A DNA stretch of 64,000 nt from Candidatus Doudnabacteria bacterium RIFCSPHIGHO2_02_FULL_42_25 (GCA_001777665.1 MFEQ01000004.1:64679-128678), one strand, 5' to 3'. Shown: positions 2,215 to 63,245, counted from the stretch's first letter. Notes: generated by a model from the letters alone, not told the origin. A program made the numbers and translations.

Positions 2215-2793
2215 TTAAAATAACGCAGCTTGTCTGGCAATTGGTTTTCGCATCATCGGCTCGCTGAAACGCATCTGTAACTCCCTCATCTCAAAATAAT
2301 CCTTATACATACACTTCTCATATCGTAATATATAATCGTAGAGATCTTTGGTGATTCTGACATCATCTAGGCAATATTTTTTCAACTCTTCTATCTGTCC
2401 CAGTTTGTAAAATTTCAAAGCCTGCAATCCATCCCCGCTTTTCCCAACTCCCAAAGTAGATTGAGCTAAATTATCTAGCTTCAATCGACGCCCAAGTAAT
2501 TTTTCGATTTCCTCAAGGATGTCTAAGTAAGGAATGTCAGATAGTTGATAATTCAAATACGGTTGAAGGACTTGAAAATCGAAATTCTTGATATTAAAAC
2601 CGATCACCTGATCAGCTTCTGCGAGCATCTCACCTAACCGATAAAGTTGGTCTTCAGTAAAACATTGATATTTATTAGAAGGATAAGAGTAGACTCCAAC
2701 TACAGAAACTTTAAGTAAGTGATTTTTACCAAACCCCCCAACTTCTTCAAATGATTTTTGTGTCTCTAAATCGAGAACGATTTTGTTTAACAT
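2215..2793 (-). CDS. putative DEDD-type 3'-5' exonuclease (RNase H-like fold)
   Basis: N-terminal LDLET exo-I-like motif, about 190 aa; family assignment tentative. Confidence 0.4.
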   Translation of the reverse strand: MLNKIVLDLETQKSFEEVGGFGKNHLLKVSVVGVYSYPSNKYQCFTEDQLYRLGEMLAEADQVIGFNIKNFDFQVLQPYLNYQLSDIPYLDILEEIEKLLGRRLKLDNLAQSTLGVGKSGDGLQALKFYKLGQIEELKKYCLDDVRITKDLYDYILRYEKCMYKDYFEMRELQMRFSEPMMRKPIARQAALF

Positions 2794-2860
2794 ACATTAA
2801 GCATTATATCACAACCTGCTGCAATTTGGTCAATGCCAACAATTATGGTAAAATAATCAA

Positions 2861-4298
2861 TATGAATCGCACGCTTATTAAAGATACAATCAACAAAACC
2901 GAGCAGGAAGTTTTAATTAAAGGCTGGGTCAACATCAGAAGAGATCATGGCAAATTGATTTTTTTGGATATCCGGGACCGATCTGGTTTGATTCAAGCCG
3001 TGATCAATCCTAAGGTTTCTGCTGAAGCGCATGCGGTTGCCTCTGAAATCCGCAACGAATATGTAGTCGAGCTGATCGGAAAAATCAATCCACGCGGCGA
3101 AAAACAAATAAATCTAGACCTCGAAACTGGAAAGATCGAAATCGAAGTTACAGGGCTAAAGATAATCAACGGTGCCAAGCCACTCCCCTTTGATATTACT
3201 TCAGACACGAGAACGGTTTCCGAAGAAATACGTCTAAAATACAGGTATTTGGATTTGAGAAATGAGCGAATGAAAAAAAATCTCAAGCTAAGACATAATG
3301 TCATCCAATTCATCAGAAATTATTTGATGGGACTTGATTTCACGGAAATCCAAACACCAATCCTTACTAAATCAACACCTGAAGGAGCAAGAGATTACCT
3401 AGTACCATCGAGGATTTATCCTGGTAATTTTTTTGCATTGCCTCAATCTCCACAACAATACAAACAGTTGTTAATGGTTGGTGGAATAGAACGATACTTT
3501 CAGATAGCTCCGTGTTTTCGTGATGAAGACGCCAGAGCCGATCGAAGTCCGGGAGAATTTTATCAACTCGATCTTGAAATGTCTTTTGTCGAACAGGAAG
3601 ATATTTTAGAGTTGACTGAAAAATTGTTTACCGATTTGGTAAAAACTCTTACTCCAGAAAAACATATAACTTTTTCTCCTTGGCCAAGAATTACCCACAA
3701 AGAAGCAAAAGCGAAATTCGGAAATGACAAACCAGATATGCGTAAAGATAAAAATGATCCGAATGAATTGGCTTTTTGTTGGGTTTTAGATTTTCCTCTT
3801 TTCACTGAACAAACCGAAGAAGATTTCTTTCACGGAGCAGGAGATAAATGGGGGCCTTCGCATCACATGTTTACTGCTCCCAAATCGGAAGATATTCCAT
3901 TACTAGATACAGATCCAGGAAAAGCTAGAGGGTTACAACACGATTTGGCTTTGAATGGTGTGGAAATTGGCGGAGGTAGCATCCGTATTCATGATCCAAA
4001 AATTCAGGAAAAGATTTTTGATTTGATTGGATTTACTAAAAAGCAGAAACAACGATTCAATCACATGCTAGAAGCTTTTGAATATGGCGTTCCCCCTCAT
4101 GGTGGCATAGCTCCAGGAATAGATCGATTAGTTAGAATTTTAGCAGGGGAAGAAAAAATTAGTGAGGTCATCGCTTTTCCTCTCTCTGGATCAGTTCGCG
4201 ACCCTATGATGGGTTCCCCTTCCGACGTGTCAGACAAACAACTCAAAGAATTACACATCAAAGTGGATTTACCAAAGGAGAAAAAAATAGATATTTAA
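2861..4298 (+). CDS. aspS: aspartyl-tRNA synthetase, short archaeal/eukaryal-type (likely non-discriminating)
   Basis: OB-fold N-terminal domain, class II motifs (QSPQQYKQLLMVGGIERYFQIAPCFRDED, GGGSIRIHD), about 479 aa without GAD insertion; start moved to ATG 2861 (track ORF starts at 2751 inside the convergent neighbour). Confidence 0.85.
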
Positions 4299-4300
4299 TT

Positions 4301-4424
4301 CCCCCTCTTAGAATAAGAGGGGGTTAGGGGGGAGTTAGATCTCAAGCGTTAAACAGCAGCTTAATCCTTAAAGGATATAACCCCTCCTAGCCTCCCCTTA
4401 ATATAAGGGGAGGAACAACAGCAT
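4301..4424. mobile_element. MITE-like palindromic element (family 1: CCCCTCTTAGAATAAGAGGGG ... CTCCCCTTAATATAAGGGGAG); miniature of the DUF559 element at 33796-34251
   Basis: Both hairpin ends match the inverted ends flanking the DUF559 ORF; same 120 bp unit present in reverse orientation at 55135-55252. Confidence 0.7.
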
Positions 4425-22543: not shown

Positions 22544-22975
22544 TTAGACCCCAAGTTCTCCGAGTGCTTCTGCGATACTGGTACTTTCACTTTCAGTGGT
22601 TTTCTTGTATGCTTCCCAGGTTTGTGAATCCCAAATTTCAATTCGGTTATATAAACCTGCGACCACAACTTTTTTTCCGAGACTGGCAAACTTTCTCAAA
22701 TATTCTGGGATCATCATTCGTCCTTGCTTGTCTAATTCGGCATCATAAGCCCCGGCCAACATCAATCTGGCAAAAGCTCTGGAATTGGCTTTCGAAAGCG
22801 GTAAAGCTGCCAACTTCGTGGCAATTGCTTCCCATTCGCTTTTCGTGTAAAGGAACAAACTTCGATCTAGTCCCCTCGTTACTACGGCAGCTGCGGAAAG
22901 CTTGGATCGGAATTTAGCCGGAACCGCGATTCTTCCCTTCGCATCCATACTGATTGTATACTCGCCTATAAACAT
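22544..22975 (-). CDS. mraZ: transcriptional regulator MraZ
   Basis: Duplicated SpoVT/AbrB-like MraZ domains, MFIGEYTISMDAKGRIAVPAKFR. Confidence 0.85.
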   Translation of the reverse strand: MFIGEYTISMDAKGRIAVPAKFRSKLSAAAVVTRGLDRSLFLYTKSEWEAIATKLAALPLSKANSRAFARLMLAGAYDAELDKQGRMMIPEYLRKFASLGKKVVVAGLYNRIEIWDSQTWEAYKKTTESESTSIAEALGELGV

Positions 22976-22995
22976 TCTTGTGATCGCGAGTTTCC

Positions 22996-23070
22996 TACGA
23001 AATACGAATTGGTACGAAACTACGAACTGGGCTTAATTCTTTCGTATTTTCGTAGATTTTCGTAGTTCGG
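22996..23070. promoter_or_regulatory. TACGAA/TTCGTA iteron palindrome (copy 1) in mraZ 5' region
   Basis: 4 direct TACGAA repeats then 3-4 inverted TTCGTA repeats; same architecture at 31445-31524, 35119-35190, 61170-61264, 63134-63245. Confidence 0.7.
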
Positions 23071-23104
23071 AGAGAAAACTCCATTAATAGCTACAGGAAC
23101 CGAG

Positions 23105-29593: not shown

Positions 29594-29606
29594 ATTTTTT
29601 GTTCTC

Positions 29607-29626
29607 CCTGCCTGCCGGCAGGCAGG
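29607..29626. repeat. perfect 20-bp palindrome CCTGCCTGCCGGCAGGCAGG (copy 2), intercistronic
   Basis: Abuts stop codon of upstream gene, 13 nt before next ATG. Confidence 0.9.
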
Positions 29627-30326: not shown

Positions 30327-30469
30327 TTATTTAATTTTCTTTTTGTTTTAGACCCTTTTTGTTTCGATCAGGATCGGCTAGCCGATACTATATCTACTTG
30401 TATTATAGCAAAAAATCGCTCTCTTGTCAACAATTCAGGCTAGTAATAAGTAAGGAGTAATTAGTAAAT

Positions 30470-30500
30470 AGAAAACTGCGGGGTTGGCCGCAGTTTCTTA
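30470..30500. terminator. rplL terminator hairpin AAAACTGCGG-GGTTGG-CCGCAGTTT
   Basis: Stem-loop with flanking A/T runs; near-identical hairpin at 33151-33168. Confidence 0.65.
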
Positions 30501-30521
30501 TTACTTTTTACTTATTACTAA

Positions 30522-30896
30522 TTACTTGAGCGTGACTTTCGCGCCAGCTTCTTCGAGTTTTTTCTTTAATTCTTCAGCTTCGGCTTTTGCGATATTTTCT
30601 TTAATCGCTTTAGGAGCAGCATCAACTAAGTCTTTCGCTTCTTTCAAACCCTTGCCAGTAGCTTCGCGTACGACTTTGATGACGTTGATCTTGTTGGCCC
30701 CGGCATCGGTAAGCTCAACTGTGAATTCAGTCTTTTCTTCTACAGCAGCAGCTCCACCTGCAGCCGGGCCTGCGGCCATCATCATCGGAGCCGCAGCAGA
30801 AACACCAAACTTTTCTTCCAAAATTTTCACCAATTCAGAAAGCTCGAGGGCCGTTAACTTTTCAATCTCTGAAACGATATTATCAAAATTTGCCAT
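30522..30896 (-). CDS. rplL: 50S ribosomal protein L7/L12
   Basis: Classic L12 N-terminal dimerisation and C-terminal domain sequence. Confidence 0.9.
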
Positions 30897-31444: not shown

Positions 31445-31524
31445 CTACGAACTTACGAAATTTTTACGAAAGTACGAAGAGCTAATTTTTTTCGTATTTT
31501 CGTACTTGTTCGTACTTTCGTAGC
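31445..31524. promoter_or_regulatory. TACGAA/TTCGTA iteron palindrome (copy 2), immediate rplJ leader
   Basis: Ends 10 nt upstream of rplJ ATG. Confidence 0.7.
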
Positions 31525-32014: not shown

Positions 32015-32034
32015 CCTGCCTGCCGGCAGGCAGG
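32015..32034. repeat. perfect 20-bp palindrome CCTGCCTGCCGGCAGGCAGG (copy 3)
   Basis: 7 nt after mltG stop; flanked by TTACTTATTAC motifs. Confidence 0.9.
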
Positions 32035-32041
32035 CTTATTA

Positions 32042-33130
32042 CTATCTCAAGTATTTCGCCCTATTCTCCCCATGCTCTTCCAGAGTCTTGGCAAAATATG
32101 CTGTTCCATCAGGTGAATTCAAGAAAAATAAATAATCAGAGTTCGCGGGATAAATTGCTGCTTTGATCGAATCAATTCCTGGATTGCCTATCGGTCCTGG
32201 TGGTAATCCACGATTAGCATAAGTGTTGTAGGGAGATTTAATTTTCGTATCTTCGATGGTTACAGACCGATCGGATTTCCCTGTCACATAATTTATCGTT
32301 GCATCTGATTCTAACGCCATACCAATTTCTAGTCGATTATAAAACACTGATGCGACCAGTTCTCTTTCGTTCTGCATAATTTCCAAATCTTCATCAGTAA
32401 GATTTTCTTTATTCCTTCCGACTTCCTTCTCTATGATAGAAGCTAAAATCAATATTTGTCCGAAATCATAATTTGTTTTCTCCGCATCTTCCACCATTTG
32501 ATCTGTAACCTTACTTTCAAAATTATTTAACATTTTACTAATCAAATCTTCTAGATGATTTTCTTTACTCAAGGTGTAAGTGTCCGGAAATAAAAATCCT
32601 TCGTAGTTAAATTTGTCACCCAAAATTTTAAATTCAAAATCAAAGTTGCCAGCCAAGGCATTATTAAATTCGGTTTCAGAACTGATGATATTTCTGTTAA
32701 CCAAATATTTTCCAATTTGTTTATTACTCCAGCCTTCGATCATGGTCACGTTCCGATTCTCACTCACAACTTTTCCGTGCGTCAGGATGTCGACAATTTC
32801 TGGAATTGCCATGTTGCTGTTTAACACATATTCGCCTGCCTGAATTTTTCCTCCAGCATTGTGAAGCTTAGTATAAATCAAAAAAATATATTTATTGCCT
32901 ATAACTTTTTCTTCCCATAGCAGCTGCCCGGTTTGTTTGGTCGAAAATCCTTTTTCTACAGTGATGTTTATTTCATGACTTTCGTCAGTAGCAGCGGCAT
33001 TAACTTTAGTTAGATAGTAAGTAACCATCACTAACCCTACTACAACAATCAATGCCAACAGCAGTAAAAGGCTTTTGCGCAGCCCTCGCTTTGGATCAAT
33101 TATTTGATATTCGTTCGGATTCATTTGCAT
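32042..33130 (-). CDS. mltG: endolytic murein transglycosylase MltG (YceG family)
   Basis: N-terminal TM, YceG-like domain, GLPPGPIGNPG motif. Confidence 0.8.
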   Translation of the reverse strand: MQMNPNEYQIIDPKRGLRKSLLLLLALIVVVGLVMVTYYLTKVNAAATDESHEINITVEKGFSTKQTGQLLWEEKVIGNKYIFLIYTKLHNAGGKIQAGEYVLNSNMAIPEIVDILTHGKVVSENRNVTMIEGWSNKQIGKYLVNRNIISSETEFNNALAGNFDFEFKILGDKFNYEGFLFPDTYTLSKENHLEDLISKMLNNFESKVTDQMVEDAEKTNYDFGQILILASIIEKEVGRNKENLTDEDLEIMQNERELVASVFYNRLEIGMALESDATINYVTGKSDRSVTIEDTKIKSPYNTYANRGLPPGPIGNPGIDSIKAAIYPANSDYLFFLNSPDGTAYFAKTLEEHGENRAKYLR

Positions 33131-34377: not shown

Positions 34378-35061
34378 TTAAGACTTGATGTCTCGTTCAA
34401 TTCGATCGAGCACTTTGCTCGCATGTTCTTTTCCACCCAGACCAAACGCCAGACCACCAGCGATCGCTAACATAGCGATGATACCAGTGAAGAGCGTTGT
34501 CACAAATCCTTCTGCAACTCTAAGTTGATCCAAAGTTGCAAGAACAGTGAAGATCATCACAGCCCAAGTCGTAACTGTTGCCAGAAGATCAGCAGAAACG
34601 AGTCCGGCAGCTTTGACGCTGTGGCGGACCAAGTTTCCCAAAAATCTCGCAAGCATCGTACCAACTAACAGAATCGCAGCGGCAGCGATGACGCTTGGAA
34701 TGTAAAGCAACACTTGATTCAAGAACGCTGAGATTTCTGTAAGATTCAAAATATCAGCTGCAGCGAGGAAGACAGCAATTAACAAAAACCACTTCACGAG
34801 CCAAGCTAGAGTGCCTGACACGCTCATCTTCATTCCAGTGCGGTTTGATATTTCATCCAATCCCAGTTTGTCTCCGATCTCGTCAACTTTTGCAGAATGC
34901 AAAACTTGTCTGATAAGTTTTGCCACAAAGGATGCAACTACCCAGCCAACGACCAGAATAATGACCGCGACTAAGAAGTTTGGCAAAAAATTTATGAAAC
35001 GTGCGTAGAGATTCTGTAACGAATCAGCTACAGTTTGAGAATAAGAATTGTAATCATTCAT
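34378..35061 (-). CDS. membrane protein, unknown (possibly a small mechanosensitive-channel-like protein)
   Basis: 227 aa, 4-5 TM helices; assignment weak. Confidence 0.4.
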   Translation of the reverse strand: MNDYNSYSQTVADSLQNLYARFINFLPNFLVAVIILVVGWVVASFVAKLIRQVLHSAKVDEIGDKLGLDEISNRTGMKMSVSGTLAWLVKWFLLIAVFLAAADILNLTEISAFLNQVLLYIPSVIAAAAILLVGTMLARFLGNLVRHSVKAAGLVSADLLATVTTWAVMIFTVLATLDQLRVAEGFVTTLFTGIIAMLAIAGGLAFGLGGKEHASKVLDRIERDIKS

Positions 35062-35118: not shown

Positions 35119-35190
35119 CTACGAACTACGAATTTTTACGAATATACGAACTGGGGTTAACCCTTTTCGTAAATTCGTGTTTGTTCGTAA
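35119..35190. promoter_or_regulatory. TACGAA/TTCGTA iteron palindrome (copy 3) with GGGTTAACCC core
   Basis: 58 nt upstream of 35061 start. Confidence 0.7.
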
Positions 35191-55134: not shown

Positions 55135-55252
55135 CAGCAGTTGTTCCTCCCCTTAATATAAGGGGAGCTAGGAGGGGTTATCCTTAAGCGTTAAGCTGCT
55201 GTTTAACTCTTGGAATCAACTCCCCCTAACCCCCTCTTATTCTAAGAGGGGG
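55135..55252. mobile_element. MITE-like palindromic element (family 1), reverse-orientation copy of 4301-4424
   Basis: Near-identical block order in reverse complement. Confidence 0.7.
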
Positions 55253-55268
55253 AATTTACAGCAAACTT

Positions 55269-56201
55269 ATGTCTAACAAACTAATAGTAATTTTAGGCCC
55301 TACCACCTCGGGGAAATCATCACTCGCTATCAATCTCGCCCAAAAATTCAATGGCGAGATTATTTCTGCTGACTCCAGGCAAGTCTACAAAGGCATGGAT
55401 ATCGGCACTGGTAAAGTTACTAAAGCAGAACAAAAACTAATCAAACATTATCTTCTCGACGTCTCCTCCCCAAAAAAGCAATTCACTGTTTCGGATTTTA
55501 AGCGTCTTCTAATTTCAGCGATCGCTCAAATTAGAGGAAAAGACAAATTGCCTTTCTTAGTTGGTGGCTCGCCTTTTTATATTTATGCGGCCATAGATAA
55601 TCTACAAATTCCAGAAGTCACACCCAATCAAAAACTACGTAATCAACTACGTAGAAAAACTACTACCCAACTTTTTGCCATGCTTAAAAAACTTGACCCA
55701 GTTCGAGCAAAAAATATTGATAAAAATAATCCTCGGAGATTGATAAGAGCTATTGAAATAGTAAAAGCGACGGGAAAGCCGGTACCACCCCCACCTAACC
55801 TCCCCCTGGCAGGGGGAGGTGCCTTGATCATTGGGATCAAGAAGTCTCGTAAACAGCTCTACAAGCTTATCGATCAACGACTTGAGCAAAGACTCAATCA
55901 AGGAATGGTTAATGAAGTCAAAAAACTTCTGAAACAAAAAATCAGCCACAAACGGCTGCAAGAAATGGGATTAGAGTATCGCTTTATTTCTCTTTATCTG
56001 CAAGATCATCTCACCTATGAGCAAATGGTTGAACAATTGAAAAGCGCTATTCACAAATTCAGCAAACGCCAAATGACTTGGTTCCAAACCGACAAACGTA
56101 TCAAATGGATCTCTTCAGAAAAACAAGCAGAACGACTAATTAAGGACTATATAAAACCATCTCGACCCCGGACTACGATCCGGGGGAGAGATCCCTCCTG
56201 A
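55269..56201 (+). CDS. miaA: tRNA dimethylallyltransferase
   Basis: P-loop GPTTSGKSSLAINLA, DSRQVYKGMDIGT; carries two in-frame palindromic insertions (55789-55819 and 56166-56201). Confidence 0.85.
   Translation: MSNKLIVILGPTTSGKSSLAINLAQKFNGEIISADSRQVYKGMDIGTGKVTKAEQKLIKHYLLDVSSPKKQFTVSDFKRLLISAIAQIRGKDKLPFLVGGSPFYIYAAIDNLQIPEVTPNQKLRNQLRRKTTTQLFAMLKKLDPVRAKNIDKNNPRRLIRAIEIVKATGKPVPPPPNLPLAGGGALIIGIKKSRKQLYKLIDQRLEQRLNQGMVNEVKKLLKQKISHKRLQEMGLEYRFISLYLQDHLTYEQMVEQLKSAIHKFSKRQMTWFQTDKRIKWISSEKQAERLIKDYIKPSRPRTTIRGRDPS
55789..55819. repeat. family-1 hairpin CCCCACCTAACCTCCCCC-TGGCA-GGGGGAGG inserted in-frame in miaA
   Basis: Shares 17-mer CCCCACCTAACCTCCCC with element end 34215-34231; translated as PPPNLPLAGGGA. 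Confidence 0.7.
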
Positions 56202-58836: not shown

Positions 58837-60284
58837 AGGTTTGGTTTTAATTTTAAATTTAATGATTTTTCCAAAGCATGACCGGCTTGGAATAATTTTT
58901 CCTCTGCAAAATGGTTGGCAATTAGCTGTACTCCGACTGGTAATCCGCTCTTTGTTAAACCACCTGGGACGGACATCGCAGGCACTCCAGCAAGATTAAT
59001 AGGGCCCGTAAACACATCTTCCAAATACATAGATACCGGATCTTTTTTCTCATCTATTTTAAATGCTGGTTTTGGTGAAACTGGCGTTAACAGTAAATCA
59101 AATTTATCGAATGCCGATTTAAAATCTTGTTGGACCAATGATTCAATTTGTTTGGCTTTTTTGTAATATGCATCATAATATCCGGCAGACGAAGCATAAG
59201 TCCCGATCATAATTCTTCTTTTGACCTCGGCTCCCAATCCTTGGGACCTGGAATTATAATAAACTTCTTCCAAAGTTTTTCCAGGCACTGATAACCCATA
59301 ACGGATTCCGTCATACCTGGAAAGATTGGCAGAAATTTCTACTGGTGCAATGATATAATACGCCGGAACTGAATATGGAACATTCGGCAAACTGACTTCT
59401 GATACTTCAGCTCCCAGTGCTTCTACTTGTTTGATTGCATTCTCAACTATCGCTCTAACCTCTGGATCAATACCTTCTACAAAAAATTCTTTTGGGATAC
59501 CGATTTTCATGCCCTTTAAATCTTCGGATAGTGCTGCTGAATAATCCGGAACAAGTTTAGGTAAACTCGTACTGTCTTTGACGTCTTGTCCGACAATCAT
59601 TTGCAGAGCCAACGCTGCGTCTTCTACTGTTCTCGTAAATACTCCGATCTGGTCCATCGATGAACACATGGCTATCAAACCAAATCTGGATACTCGGCCA
59701 TAGGTCGGTTTCATACCTACGACACCACAAAACGATGCTGGCTGTCGGATCGAACCAAATGTATCGGATCCAATACTAAAAATTACTTCGCCAGAGGCAA
59801 CCGATGCAGCAGAACCTCCAGAAGATCCACCTGGCACCCTAGACAAATCGTATGGATTTTTGGTCGGGCCATAAGCAGAATATAGAGTCGATGCTCCCAT
59901 GGCGAATTCATCCAAATTCGTTTTCCCCATCATCACAGGAGAAACTTTTTTTAATTTTTCAATAACTGTCGCGTCATATGGTGCGACATAATTTTCCAAA
60001 ATTTTTGAAGCTGCTGTAGCTTTCATGCCTTTGACTAAAATACAATCTTTCACCGAATAAGGAATCCCAGTTAACGCAAAATTTTCATTGTCAGCAATGA
60101 TCATTCGGTCGACTTCATCCGCTTGCTCCATCGCCTCTTTTTCCGCTACATACAAAAAAGCATGAACTTTATCATCCACTTCTTTGATTCGTTCCAAAGA
60201 CATCTCTGCCAGTTCTTTCGCAGAAACTTCTTTTTTCGCAATCAACTCTGATGCAGATTTAATTGTAAGGTCTGTAAAATTCAT
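58833..60284 (-). CDS. gatA: Asp/Glu-tRNA amidotransferase subunit A
   Basis: Amidase signature GGSSGGSAASVASG. Confidence 0.9.
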   Translation of the reverse strand: MNFTDLTIKSASELIAKKEVSAKELAEMSLERIKEVDDKVHAFLYVAEKEAMEQADEVDRMIIADNENFALTGIPYSVKDCILVKGMKATAASKILENYVAPYDATVIEKLKKVSPVMMGKTNLDEFAMGASTLYSAYGPTKNPYDLSRVPGGSSGGSAASVASGEVIFSIGSDTFGSIRQPASFCGVVGMKPTYGRVSRFGLIAMCSSMDQIGVFTRTVEDAALALQMIVGQDVKDSTSLPKLVPDYSAALSEDLKGMKIGIPKEFFVEGIDPEVRAIVENAIKQVEALGAEVSEVSLPNVPYSVPAYYIIAPVEISANLSRYDGIRYGLSVPGKTLEEVYYNSRSQGLGAEVKRRIMIGTYASSAGYYDAYYKKAKQIESLVQQDFKSAFDKFDLLLTPVSPKPAFKIDEKKDPVSMYLEDVFTGPINLAGVPAMSVPGGLTKSGLPVGVQLIANHFAEEKLFQAGHALEKSLNLKLKPNL

Positions 60285-60565
60285 TCCAGTATACTTTTAA
60301 CTTTAATATAATCATCATGACGTGAAGGCACTTGATCTAAAAATAATTTCGGATCAGCGCTCTCGATTGCGACATCGTCTCGCATTAAATTCAATGCATC
60401 TTTATCATACTCTTCCCCTAGCACTTTACTTTGAATTGCTTTGAGCTGATCCACGTAATCCAAAATGGCTGACAATTCAGTTTGTAGTTTTTGTTTCTCT
60501 TCTTCTTCGAAGGAAAGTCTGGCTAATTTGGCGATACGATTGACTTCGTCGAGGGAAATAGACAT
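60281..60565 (-). CDS. gatC: Asp/Glu-tRNA amidotransferase subunit C
   Basis: 94 aa, first gene of gatCAB. Confidence 0.8.
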   Translation of the reverse strand: MSISLDEVNRIAKLARLSFEEEEKQKLQTELSAILDYVDQLKAIQSKVLGEEYDKDALNLMRDDVAIESADPKLFLDQVPSRHDDYIKVKSILE

Positions 60566-60591: not shown

Positions 60592-61167
60592 ATGCTCATT
60601 TTTTGGATAGTTCTCGGTTTACTGGTACTTGGGTTTATAGGTATTTACAACAGTTTAATCCATTCCCGCAACAGAGTGGATGAAGCTTGGTCAGATATTG
60701 AAGTTCAGCTCAAACGTAGATATGACTTGATCCCGAACTTAGTCAATACGGTCAAAGGTTACGCACAGCATGAACAAGGGACTCTGACGAAAGTCACTGA
60801 AGCGAGAGCCAAAGCTACGGCTATTACCATGGATCCGACCAAGCTCAACGTGGAACAGATGGCCAAATTCCAAGCTGCGCAGGGTGAATTGTCTCAAGCG
60901 ATCGGCCGACTCTTTGCACTGTCCGAACAGTATCCAGATTTGAAAGCCAATCAAAATTTCATGCAGTTACAGTCTGATCTAACTGACACGGAAGATAAAA
61001 TTCAGGCATCCAGACGTTTCTACAATGGTAATGTCCGCGACTTCAATACTAAACTGCAAACATTCCCAACCAACTTGTTTGCTAGTATGCTTGGGTTTAC
61101 TGCCAGAGCCTTCTTCGATATCGATGAAAAAGGTGTGATCGGCCAAACTCCAAACGTTCAGTTCTAA
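60592..61167 (+). CDS. lemA: LemA-family protein
   Basis: N-terminal TM, LemA pattern. Confidence 0.8.
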   Translation: MLIFWIVLGLLVLGFIGIYNSLIHSRNRVDEAWSDIEVQLKRRYDLIPNLVNTVKGYAQHEQGTLTKVTEARAKATAITMDPTKLNVEQMAKFQAAQGELSQAIGRLFALSEQYPDLKANQNFMQLQSDLTDTEDKIQASRRFYNGNVRDFNTKLQTFPTNLFASMLGFTARAFFDIDEKGVIGQTPNVQF

Positions 61168-61169
61168 GC

Positions 61170-61264
61170 CTACGAAAGTACGAATTCTCGAATTACGAAC
61201 TGTTCGCCCGCCTGCCATGACGGCATGTCGGGCAGGTAGTTTCGCAATTTCGTATTTCGTAGAA
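61170..61264. promoter_or_regulatory. TACGAA/TTCGTA iteron palindrome (copy 4) with core CGCCCGCCTGCC..GGGCAGG, abutting htpX ATG
   Basis: Core is the reverse complement of the core in copy 5 (63151-63192). Confidence 0.7.
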
Positions 61265-62679: not shown

Positions 62680-63105
62680 TCAGCAAAAATCCTGAAGAAT
62701 TGTTCTGATCACATCATTTCGAAAACCCTTACTCGACAGTCGTTGGGCAATTTTTGGTTTCGGTAAATTTCCTGATTTGTTTAAAACCTTTTTGGCGAGT
62801 TCTAACTCGAGTTCAAAAGTTAAATTTGCTTTCAGTGCTGCTTCCGCTTCATTGCTTGCAATCCCCCGCTGCATTAACTTACTCTTAAGGCCATAGAAGC
62901 CATAAGTTTTATTTCTAAGTAATTCGTCCAAATAGAGTTGGACAAACCGATCATTGTCGATAAGGTTTTCTTCCTGTAATTTCTGAATTACACCCTCAAC
63001 TTCCTCACGACTAAAACCTCTCATCAACAGCTTTTTGGTTAATTCGCCTGAATGATGAGGCCTGATTTTCAACAGTTTTATGGCTTTATCGTAAACGCTT
63101 GACAT
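62680..63105 (-). CDS. recX: RecA regulator RecX
   Basis: Three-helix-repeat RecX pattern. Confidence 0.65.
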   Translation of the reverse strand: MSSVYDKAIKLLKIRPHHSGELTKKLLMRGFSREEVEGVIQKLQEENLIDNDRFVQLYLDELLRNKTYGFYGLKSKLMQRGIASNEAEAALKANLTFELELELAKKVLNKSGNLPKPKIAQRLSSKGFRNDVIRTILQDFC

Positions 63106-63133
63106 ATCTGCTATAATATTAGTATAGTACTGC

Positions 63134-63245
63134 CTACGAAAGTACGAAAGGATTACCTGCCCGACATGCCAGTCATGGCAGGCGGGCGAAAATACGAAAG
63201 GTTTTCACACATGTTCGTATTTCGAACAAATTCGTAGTTCGTAGA
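63134..63245. promoter_or_regulatory. TACGAA/TTCGTA iteron palindrome (copy 5) in the recX/clpC divergent region
   Basis: Inverted copy of 61170-61264 including the GC-rich core. Confidence 0.7.

Follow-up and report, generated by a model that had tools for sequence, protein, structure and literature searches.

The analyzed stretch of DNA, hereafter called the window, comprises 64,000 nucleotides from Candidatus Doudnabacteria bacterium RIFCSPHIGHO2_02_FULL_42_25 (GCA_001777665.1, MFEQ01000004.1:64679-128678). In its transcribed non-coding gaps it harbors five palindromes of 70-109 bp (E1 to E5), which are composed of TACGAA hexamers and their inverted counterpart TTCGTA. Pfam assigned the neighboring genes to MraZ, the ribosomal protein L10, a membrane protein of the MS-channel type, LemA, HtpX (M48) and RecX, while the gene following E5 was identified as clpC-like by synteny and tblastn. 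The original prediction, which regarded the hexamers as half-sites of a global regulator or nucleoid protein, placed the palindromes directly upstream of five operons. The neighbors were confirmed and all elements reside in leaders or intercistronic gaps, but E4 lies between two cistrons and not at the start of an operon. We found that the palindromes belong to a dispersed, insertion-polymorphic repeat family, whose arms are the terminal inverted repeats of a cassette with a GxxExxY gene in many genomes of the candidate phyla radiation (CPR). E1 to E5 are most likely non-autonomous derivatives of this small selfish cassette that are devoid of the open reading frame (ORF) and thereby resemble miniature inverted-repeat transposable elements (MITEs).

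On both strands of the window TACGAA occurs 77 times, while 31.9 ± 5.9 matches were expected, and none of 100 shuffled sequences reached this number. The five clusters hold 32 of the 77 matches and account for the excess. For the pattern TACGAAN{1,2}TACGAAN{3,6}TACGAA, four matches were obtained in the window against 0.00 expected. All five elements share one architecture, which is read directly from the sequence and had been described correctly: approximately four TACGAA hexamers with an A or T after each, then a 12-15-nt core and three to four inverted TTCGTA hexamers. The spacing of 7-11 nt from start to start also agreed with the earlier description. Degenerate hexamers (CTCGAA, TTCGCA and TTCGAA) were found in E4 and E5. 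Moreover, a GC-rich stretch of 31-33 nt, TACCTGCCCGACATGCC(A)GTCATGGCAGGCGGG, is nested in each of these two elements; this insert breaks a hexamer and had previously been mistaken for the core. Both inserts have the same orientation relative to the arm and end with ...GGCGGGCGAA, while an otherwise nearly identical copy of the E4 subtype in another genome (L126) lacks the insert. The insert may represent a mobile hairpin of second order, with the hexamer as its target. Comparison of the whole window with Rfam at gathering thresholds disclosed only five tRNAs and no match at E1 to E5.

RNAfold predicted long interrupted hairpins for E1 to E5 (z = -3.1 to -6.8), in line with the proposal that each element is a long imperfect palindrome capable of folding. 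A masking of translation starts, which had been suggested as a consequence, was not corroborated, as the ATG codons lie 8-58 nt outside the predicted stems. Analysis of 26 distinct full palindromes revealed pairing in 71% of the inner and 63% of the outer spacers, compared to 34% of the middle spacer and 37% by chance; the middle spacer is also often of unequal length in the two arms. Since the inner and outer spacers pair above chance and the middle one does not, the predicted fold would consist of two helices of approximately 14 bp with a 4-5 x 4-5 internal loop between them, which is also what RNAfold gave for E1 to E5. In the E4 subtype, the changes that make hexamers degenerate do not compensate each other.

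The arm family and the enclosed GxxExxY gene

A scan for the four-hexamer arm, using one genome per species, yielded at least 119 loci. According to the record titles, approximately 85 of them belong to CPR/Patescibacteria, 13 to metagenome-assembled genomes (MAGs) named Bacteroidota and two to Omnitrophota, the rest bearing automatic or generic names; outside the CPR, binning errors are possible. The carriers within the CPR comprise Nomura-, Moran-, Uhr-, Magasanik-, Doudna-, Falkow-, Sung-, Terry-, Taylor-, Nealson-, Portnoy-, Staskawicz- and Harrisonbacteria, Saccharibacteria and others. From 172 arms the consensus C-TACGAAw-(1-2)-TACGAAw-(3-6, mostly 4-5)-TACGAAw-(2)-TACGAAw was derived. 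Spacers of 1/4/2 and 1/5/2 nt were found in 76 and 42 of these arms, respectively, the preceding C is present in 61%, and a G follows the hexamers in 0-2%, while the spacers are otherwise free. The arms are 31 nt long and, like the terminal inverted repeats of MITEs, surround a short non-coding core, which here has 0-80 nt. Genome-specific subfamilies with common spacers and cores exist within L005, L029 and L049. In two MAGs named Bacteroidota we also observed tandem direct arrays of whole TACGAA arms that have no inverted partner (L022, 7050-7364; L021, 5304-5522), made up of six arms at a 41-nt period and of 15 hexamers in one orientation.

In about half of the cases, the outer end of the arm follows a stop codon at a distance of 1-7 nt or precedes a start codon by 5-15 nt, and arms adjoin 3′- and 5′-ends of genes with similar frequency (75 versus 67, respectively). 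The flanking gene pairs are co-directional in 83%, divergent in 12% and convergent in 5% of cases, while the respective values for all gaps are 76, 12 and 12%. Diverse housekeeping genes were encountered as neighbors, encoding ribosomal proteins (S3/L16, L4, L1, L17), RpoA, EF-G, EF-Ts, GroEL, DnaK, MreB, ATP synthase, TIM, FBPase, RuvA/RuvB and pilus proteins; they do not form a functionally coherent regulon. Among the 804 neighboring ORFs of the 119 loci, no recurrent transposase family was detected near or between the arm pairs. As to carriage by phages, the four-hexamer pattern gave no match in 2.9 million viral contigs.

The same 804 ORFs were clustered to look for a coding partner of the arms. 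In three genomes whose loci had been selected by the pattern, a small ORF lies exactly between the TACGAA and the TTCGTA arm, in L071 and L093 between rpsG and fusA and in L083 between pilT- and pilC-like genes. A frameshift and a stop codon make the GxxExxY copy of L083 a pseudogene. Long, ORF-bearing forms and short forms coexist in L083 and L093. To remove the bias caused by selection on a DNA pattern, a protein-based search was performed. It gave 145 matches, the listed ones being 49-83% identical, of which four homologues were picked for inspection of the surrounding DNA, with the length of the contig as the sole criterion. They reside between pilT and pilC (L139), between secD and secF (L140), upstream of a gene with an S1 domain (L144) and between rpsG and fusA (L146-151). 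All four are flanked by four to five TACGAA hexamers on the left and three to four TTCGTA hexamers on the right, with the same spacing. Altogether, the GxxExxY genes of the TACGAA clade possessed TACGAA/TTCGTA arms in each of the seven genomes examined, three of them selected by the pattern and four by the protein. Every copy of the cassette is co-oriented with the upstream host gene. In the full-length layout, the stop codon of the host gene is followed after 1-14 nt by the arm [C-TACGAAw x4], after another 1-25 nt by the ATG of the GxxExxY gene (~130 aa) and then by the arm [TTCGTA x3-4], which ends 5-12 nt before the start codon of the next host gene.

The enclosed gene product matches PF13366 (PDDEXK_3; E = 1e-24, 87-90 bits, cut-off 22) and TIGR04256 (GxxExxY; E = 1e-25, 90-92 bits, cut-off 35). 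The residues E36 (the E of GxxExxY), D74, E84 and K86 are invariant in 43 aligned homologues and represent the PD-(D/E)XK catalytic set. An AlphaFold2 model reached a predicted local distance difference test score (pLDDT) of 92.5, and its best PDB matches in Foldseek were Cas4 SSO0001 (E = 2e-5), lambda-type exonucleases, tRNA splicing endonucleases, the Hjc resolvase and I-Bth0305I; a solved structure of the GxxExxY protein itself was not detected by sequence search. The partner is thus predicted to be a PD-(D/E)XK nuclease, in which the catalytic residues (E ... D ... E-x-K) and, according to the model, the alpha-beta-beta-beta-alpha-beta core fold are conserved. A profile search disclosed 14,657 clusters of the family at 50% identity (E ≤ 1e-3), and 3,998 at a threshold of 1e-10. 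Nucleases residing at the same junction were only slightly more alike, as the pilT/pilC pair showed 70% and two of the rpsG/fusA copies 66% identity.

Other clades of the nuclease are associated with other units. A second GxxExxY clade in L083, L152 and L153 is bordered by four CGCTGA and three to four TCAGCG units at an 11-12-nt period, a third copy (L010) has ACACAGAA units in its arms, and L155/L157 possess mixed arms with CGCTGA and TACGCGGA units. Beyond L083, all three genomes inspected for the second clade thus had CGCTGA/TCAGCG arms, the mixed form included. Moreover, three ORFs of PF05635 (S23p, a four-helix bundle) were identified in protein-coding operons, flanked by arrays of TGTTCTA, TTCTTA or ATGTAT. 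The unit sequence of the arms goes with the clade of the enclosed protein. At positions 1100-1720 of L155/L157, the GxxExxY gene is embedded in two nested sets of units, CGCTGA outside and TACGCGGA inside, with a direct copy downstream. This arrangement possibly represents one cassette inserted into another or a hybrid.

Presence and absence at orthologous junctions

With the HtpX protein of the window as query, 15 loci were returned. Five of these genomes share the gene order gatA-gatC-lemA-htpX-recX-clpC at 70-80% protein identity, i.e. they have diverged by 20-30%. The lemA/htpX junction, which contains E4 in the window, is empty in L127 (TAATG) and L129 (TAAaATG), while other hairpins made up of CAATTG-like units (L125/L126), TTGCAA/TTACGG units (L128) or TCGCT units (L133) are located there in the remaining relatives. 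The gatC/gatA junction is empty in the window (ATGA overlap); it carries a TACGAA element of the E4 subtype without GC-rich insert in L126 and a different hairpin in each of L127 to L129. E5, situated in the recX/clpC leader of the window, was found in none of the relatives. The E4 subtype is thus present at different junctions in two related genomes, lemA/htpX in the window and gatC/gatA in L126. This sporadic presence argues for insertions with rapid turnover and against conserved operators. A conserved regulatory placement of the elements could therefore not be upheld, since the orthologous junctions of syntenic relatives lack them, an absence that had been named in advance as one sign against it.

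Each of the relatives (L125-L133) has its own junction hairpins, among them CAATTG units, TCGCT/GCGA units, TTTCTAACGGGAT repeats as well as ATCCCGGA and CCCTCCCC hairpins. These families were noted at the lemA/htpX, gatC/gatA and recX/clpC junctions. Small palindromes in these genomes seem to settle quite generally at stop/start junctions.

Probable origin, proposed mobility and relation to known systems

Taking the data together, we consider it probable that E1 to E5 are miniature members of the GxxExxY-cassette repeat family and not operators of the host. Several observations do not fit well with this assignment. No GxxExxY gene or remnant was found within the 64-kb window, so that a master copy in this genome is an assumption. 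All five assemblies of the species (the window and four others) have the same E1 sequence, which gives no sign of ongoing movement. In two comparisons of empty and filled sites, no convincing target-site duplication was detected; at most 1-3 nt might be duplicated, ambiguously, in relatives that are 20-30% diverged. The partner protein gave scores with PF13366/TIGR04256 only and not with a recognized transposase, as would be expected for the coding partner of a MITE, and no transposition chemistry is known for PF13366. With 7/10/8 nt, the spacing of the hexamers is not such that the sites would share a face of B-DNA. Finally, some junctions recur across genomes (rpsC/rplP three times, mreB four times, rpsG/fusA three times and pilT/pilC twice) more often than random insertion predicts. 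This recurrence could be due to a site preference, to old vertical inheritance or to a benefit for the host.

An order of events in which the short palindromes are primary and spread by other means appears unlikely to us. The GxxExxY gene would then recognize the arrays, cut the center of the palindrome and copy itself into the loop, in the manner of a homing endonuclease, and E1 to E5 would be uninvaded targets rather than deletion derivatives. Such homing would account for the excess of ORF-less over ORF-bearing forms among paired arms, approximately 20:1 (62 versus 3), for the appearance of ORF-less subtypes at new sites by themselves and for the position of the ORF, which is always exactly that of the loop. 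PD-(D/E)XK homing endonucleases exist, and one of them, I-Bth0305I, is among the fold matches. However, arms of 31 nt are very short for recombinational homing, in the pseudogene of L083 the ORF has decayed where it stands, a process that gives rise to short forms, and the spread of the short palindromes themselves would be left without explanation.

It is still somewhat less probable that the hairpins are RNA elements selected by the host, serving as sites of mRNA processing, as stabilizers of 5′- or 3′-ends or as translational couplers, with the nuclease as mere cargo. The placement exclusively in transcribed gaps, the enrichment beside highly expressed genes (ribosomal proteins, EF-G, GroEL, DnaK, MreB, ATP synthase), the recurrent junctions and the stable predicted folds would all suit this function; moreover, stop and start codons lie at the base of the stem and would be brought together in highly expressed operons. 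On the other hand, close relatives lack the elements at the same junctions or harbor unrelated hairpins there. Selection for structure alone would permit compensatory drift, whereas the hexamer is fixed across many CPR lineages and differs by nuclease clade. Furthermore, about half of the arms are solo and unable to form a hairpin.

The operator function originally ascribed to the hexamers, by which a global regulator or nucleoid protein (MraZ, HU or an AbrB-like protein) would co-regulate division, ribosome and proteostasis operons, has become very improbable. In its favor are the regular hexamer arrays, the location of E2 and E5 just downstream of predicted promoters and an HU gene adjoining E3. 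These points are outweighed by the lack of the elements at orthologous promoters, by the functionally unrelated neighbors and by the absence of a fixed distance to promoters, E4 and most copies elsewhere being intercistronic without a promoter. Related cassette families use quite different units, and the arms, as stated above, are not biased towards 5′-ends of genes. MraZ operators consist of direct repeats at a period of approximately 10 nt upstream of mraZ. Between the mraZ promoter and E1, there is a separate array of four GTGG at exactly this period, which we take to be probably the true MraZ operator; compared to the 7/10/8 spacing of TACGAA, it is the better candidate for MraZ binding. 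DnaA boxes beside E1 (TTATCCACA, plus strand) were considered as well, but are better explained by the same GTGG array on the mraZ strand. That the elements act as bidirectional terminators or attenuators is hardly credible: they are hairpins and a terminator scan flagged the inner part of E2, but the stems are interrupted, rich in AT and not followed by T-runs, convergent gene pairs are underrepresented (5% versus 12%), and copies occur inside ribosomal-protein operons and between translationally coupled genes.

Co-transcribed MITEs are known from Neisseria (Correia/NEMIS), enterobacteria (ERIC/IRU) and pneumococci (RUP/BOX). Like these, the TACGAA elements are short, hairpin-forming non-coding repeats bounded by terminal inverted repeats in transcribed intergenic DNA. 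They likewise form subfamilies particular to one genome and vary in presence from relative to relative, with five copies in 64 kb and both empty and filled sites. A longer coding element with the same termini also exists, albeit in other genomes, as seen for all seven GxxExxY genes. They differ from these MITEs in the lack of a detectable target-site duplication, in a longer partner without DDE transposase and in an arm sequence that is kept across many CPR lineages and some MAGs named Bacteroidota and not within one genus. Repetitive extragenic palindromes (REP), also as mosaic elements (BIME), similarly have a dedicated small nuclease-type gene, the REP-associated tyrosine transposase (RAYT; Y1 HUH), which is thought to recognize and spread them. 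The GTAG/GTGG head of REP is replaced by C-TACGAA, though, the arms are hexamer arrays, and the PD-(D/E)XK partner lies inside the repeat pair, whereas RAYT is a single flanked domesticated gene. PD-(D/E)XK homing endonucleases such as I-Ssp6803I and I-Bth0305I are also small nucleases encoded by selfish inserts, but target one host site and have neither inverted repeat arms nor miniatures. With operator and iteron arrays (MraZ boxes, Fur hexamer arrays, plasmid iterons), the elements share short units at fixed spacing, each plausibly bound by one subunit. Unlike such arrays, they are not conserved with a gene and not anchored to a promoter, the whole array is palindromic, and the likely binder is encoded by the element.

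The elements also resemble the intervening sequences (IVSs) of bacterial 23S and 16S rRNA with or without an S23p ORF (PF05635), selfish inserts in a transcribed and highly expressed region. In these, the S23p ORF is surrounded by a terminal stem of approximately 28 bp, which is cut in its middle (PMC4990558), and IVS-type as well as S23p inserts have been reported in rRNA genes of CPR (PMC11270868). In both systems, terminal inverted repeats form a stem around a short loop or a small ORF. Sporadic and horizontal spread, an ORF with a poor ribosome binding site and reductive evolution of the ORF are further features of IVSs (PMC4990558) that are shared. By contrast, all five TACGAA elements lie between protein-coding genes or in mRNA leaders and not in rRNA helices, the ORF of the family encodes a PD-(D/E)XK GxxExxY protein instead of a four-helix bundle, and the arms are composed of four iterated hexamers. 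Two other candidates were rejected. TIGR-Tas arrays, which occur in CPR, did not apply, as the spacers of 1-6 nt are too short for guides. A LexA/SOS box, suggested by the neighboring recX and by the similarity of CGAAC to the Cheo box, did not match the motifs given in the papers of the Erill laboratory, and the architecture is unfit.

That the hexamers are iterated protein sites is plausible. For a recognition of the arrays by the element's own nuclease, which would mobilize both full and miniature copies, we see somewhat less than an even chance. This assumption is based on the units, which are alike at all eight positions and fixed across many CPR lineages, yet differ between nuclease clades. 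A host factor is an unlikely reader, since it could not read all unit families, and the nuclease is the sole product encoded by the element. The elements would be confined to transcribed gaps and depend on read-through by the host. Once transcribed, the arms might pair into a long stem of the mRNA and, by analogy with rRNA IVSs, be cut by RNase III, an excision that we propose tentatively. Such cleavage would separate the flanking cistrons as mRNAs with short leaders, which might still be translatable in an organism poor in Shine-Dalgarno sequences and accustomed to short leaders. If so, an insertion would be nearly neutral even between translationally coupled genes. Should the expression of mraZ, rplJ, htpX or clpC be affected at all, this would be a side effect.

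A more general view, for which the prospects are rather below even, is that GxxExxY proteins act as the nucleases that mobilize a class of cassettes not described before. Each clade would read its own four-unit arrays, cassettes and miniatures would colonize the stop/start junctions of core operons, and their transcripts would be excised, making them the mRNA counterpart of rRNA IVSs; S23p/PF05635 cassettes would follow the same design. Neither TACGAA repeats in CPR nor this cassette were found to be described in the literature searched, and for GxxExxY/PF13366 we only retrieved an entry marked "Unknown" in a catalogue of 2012 (PMC3424549) and incidental mentions. MITE-like repeats as well as IVSs with an ORF proposed to aid mobility are already known. 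Three points are new: a PD-(D/E)XK GxxExxY gene is combined with arrays of four iterated units that are specific to its clade, the cassettes reside at stop/start junctions of core operons, and the design extends broadly across the CPR. The story of a regulon, in which division, ribosome and chaperone operons share one operator, is replaced by one of insertions, which calls for caution in inferring regulation from shared motifs in CPR genomes. At the same time, a concrete role is offered for the GxxExxY/PF13366 family, for which a functional study was not found in the literature searched, and this family and S23p are linked by one design, a small ORF between inverted unit arrays. Should the nuclease indeed recognize the arrays, they would be compact, programmable-looking modules of DNA (or RNA) recognition, and selfish DNA would have a new way to persist silently in essential operons of very small genomes. 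Metagenome assemblies are probably also interrupted at the repeats, many GxxExxY homologues being located on 1-3-kb contigs.

Coordinates, leaders and further repeats of the window

Table 1. Palindromes of the window, their parts and associated signals (positions counted from the first nucleotide of the window)
Feature	Position	Strand	Description
E1	22996-23071		four TACGAA, 14-nt core, three TTCGTA and TTCGGA
E1 left arm	22996-23026		TACGAA a TACGAA ttgg TACGAA ac TACGAA
E1 core	23027-23040		
E1 right arm	23041-23071		TTCGTA tt TTCGTA gatt TTCGTA g TTCGGA
GTGG array	23142-23109	-	four GTGG at exact 10-nt period, immediately downstream of predicted mraZ promoter and upstream of E1
Predicted promoter upstream of E1	23180-23152	-	TTGACG-17-TATACT
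E2	31446-31522		most regular copy; four TACGAA (31446-31478), 12-nt core, four TTCGTA (31491-31522)
Predicted promoter upstream of E2	31559-31530	-	TTGAAT-18-TATAAT
E3	35120-35189		four TACGAA (35120-35150), core CTGGGGTTAACCCTT, then TTCGTA aa TTCGTG tttg TTCGTA
Predicted promoter upstream of E3	35322-35293		perfect TTGACA-18-TATAAT
E4	61171-61261		left arm TACGAA, TACGAA, CTCGAA, TACGAA; subtype with spacers 2/2/1
E4 right arm			TTCGC/A split by insert, then TTCGCA, TTCGTA, TTCGTA
E4 nested insert	61208-61238	-	GC-rich mini-palindrome within innermost right-arm hexamer; reverse complement TACCTGCCCGACATGCCGTCATGGCAGGCGG
E5	63135-63243		left arm with third hexamer split by GC-rich insert
E5 nested insert	63154-63186	+	second GC-rich copy with one extra A; in hexamer 3 of left arm (GAT, insert, CGAA)
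E5 right arm			TTCGTA t TTCGAA caaa TTCGTA g TTCGTA

Promoters similar to those of sigma-70 were identified upstream of four elements, immediately before E2 and E5 and at a distance of 80-100 nt from E1 and E3. E1 resides in the 5′ leader of mraZ and ends 20 nt before its ATG at 22975 (minus strand). The distance of 10 nt between E2 and the ATG of rplJ (31435, minus strand) had been given correctly; as the promoter ends only 7 nt upstream of E2, the element fills essentially the whole predicted rplJ leader. E3 belongs to the leader of the MS-channel-like gene 34378-35061 (minus strand); 58 nt separate it from the ATG at 35061, and the predicted promoter is located ~100 nt upstream of it. E4 begins 3 nt after the lemA stop codon (61167) and ends 8 nt, not 6 nt as stated before, ahead of the htpX ATG (61270); it has no promoter. 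E5 is part of the clpC-like 5′ leader within the divergent recX/clpC gap and starts ~6 nt after TTGACA..TATAGT. In this region, the block CTTGAC-N6-TGGTATAAT-N7-gTATAGT (63098-63130) upstream of clpC is conserved in five relatives, including the orthologous sites of L126-L129, and may contain two overlapping promoter readings or the site of a regulator, perhaps CtsR-like.

The statement that none of the downstream genes has a Shine-Dalgarno sequence between element and ATG requires correction, as a strong purine-rich, Shine-Dalgarno-like run, GGGAGGGGATGAGAGGGGGTGA, precedes the gene behind E3. Scarcity of this signal is in any case a property of the genome and not of the elements, since most of the 65 ORFs called in the window lack it. 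Several genes (e.g., 32042-33130, 60281-60565 and 60592-61167) exhibit TATAAT 4-9 nt before the ATG, which suggests, as judged from these motifs, that leaderless or very short-leader mRNAs are frequent in this genome.

Repeats of other types were also observed. A palindrome at 30438-30528 consists of four (T)AGTAA units, a GC hairpin with a T-run and four TTACT units, the last of which overlaps the rplL stop codon. It has the design of the TACGAA elements with another unit, and its GC hairpin with T-run looks like the rplL terminator. CCTGCCTGCCGGCAGGCAGG hairpins occur at 32015-32035 and ~29596-29615 and also upstream of fusA in an unrelated Saccharibacteria-named MAG (L109). Finally, a repeat of ~125 nt is present in two inverted copies that are 89% identical (4297-4422 and 55137-55256), one after gene 2751-4298 and the other before gene 55269-56201; it contains CCCCCTC...GAGGGGG and CTCCCCTT...AAGGGGAG hairpins.

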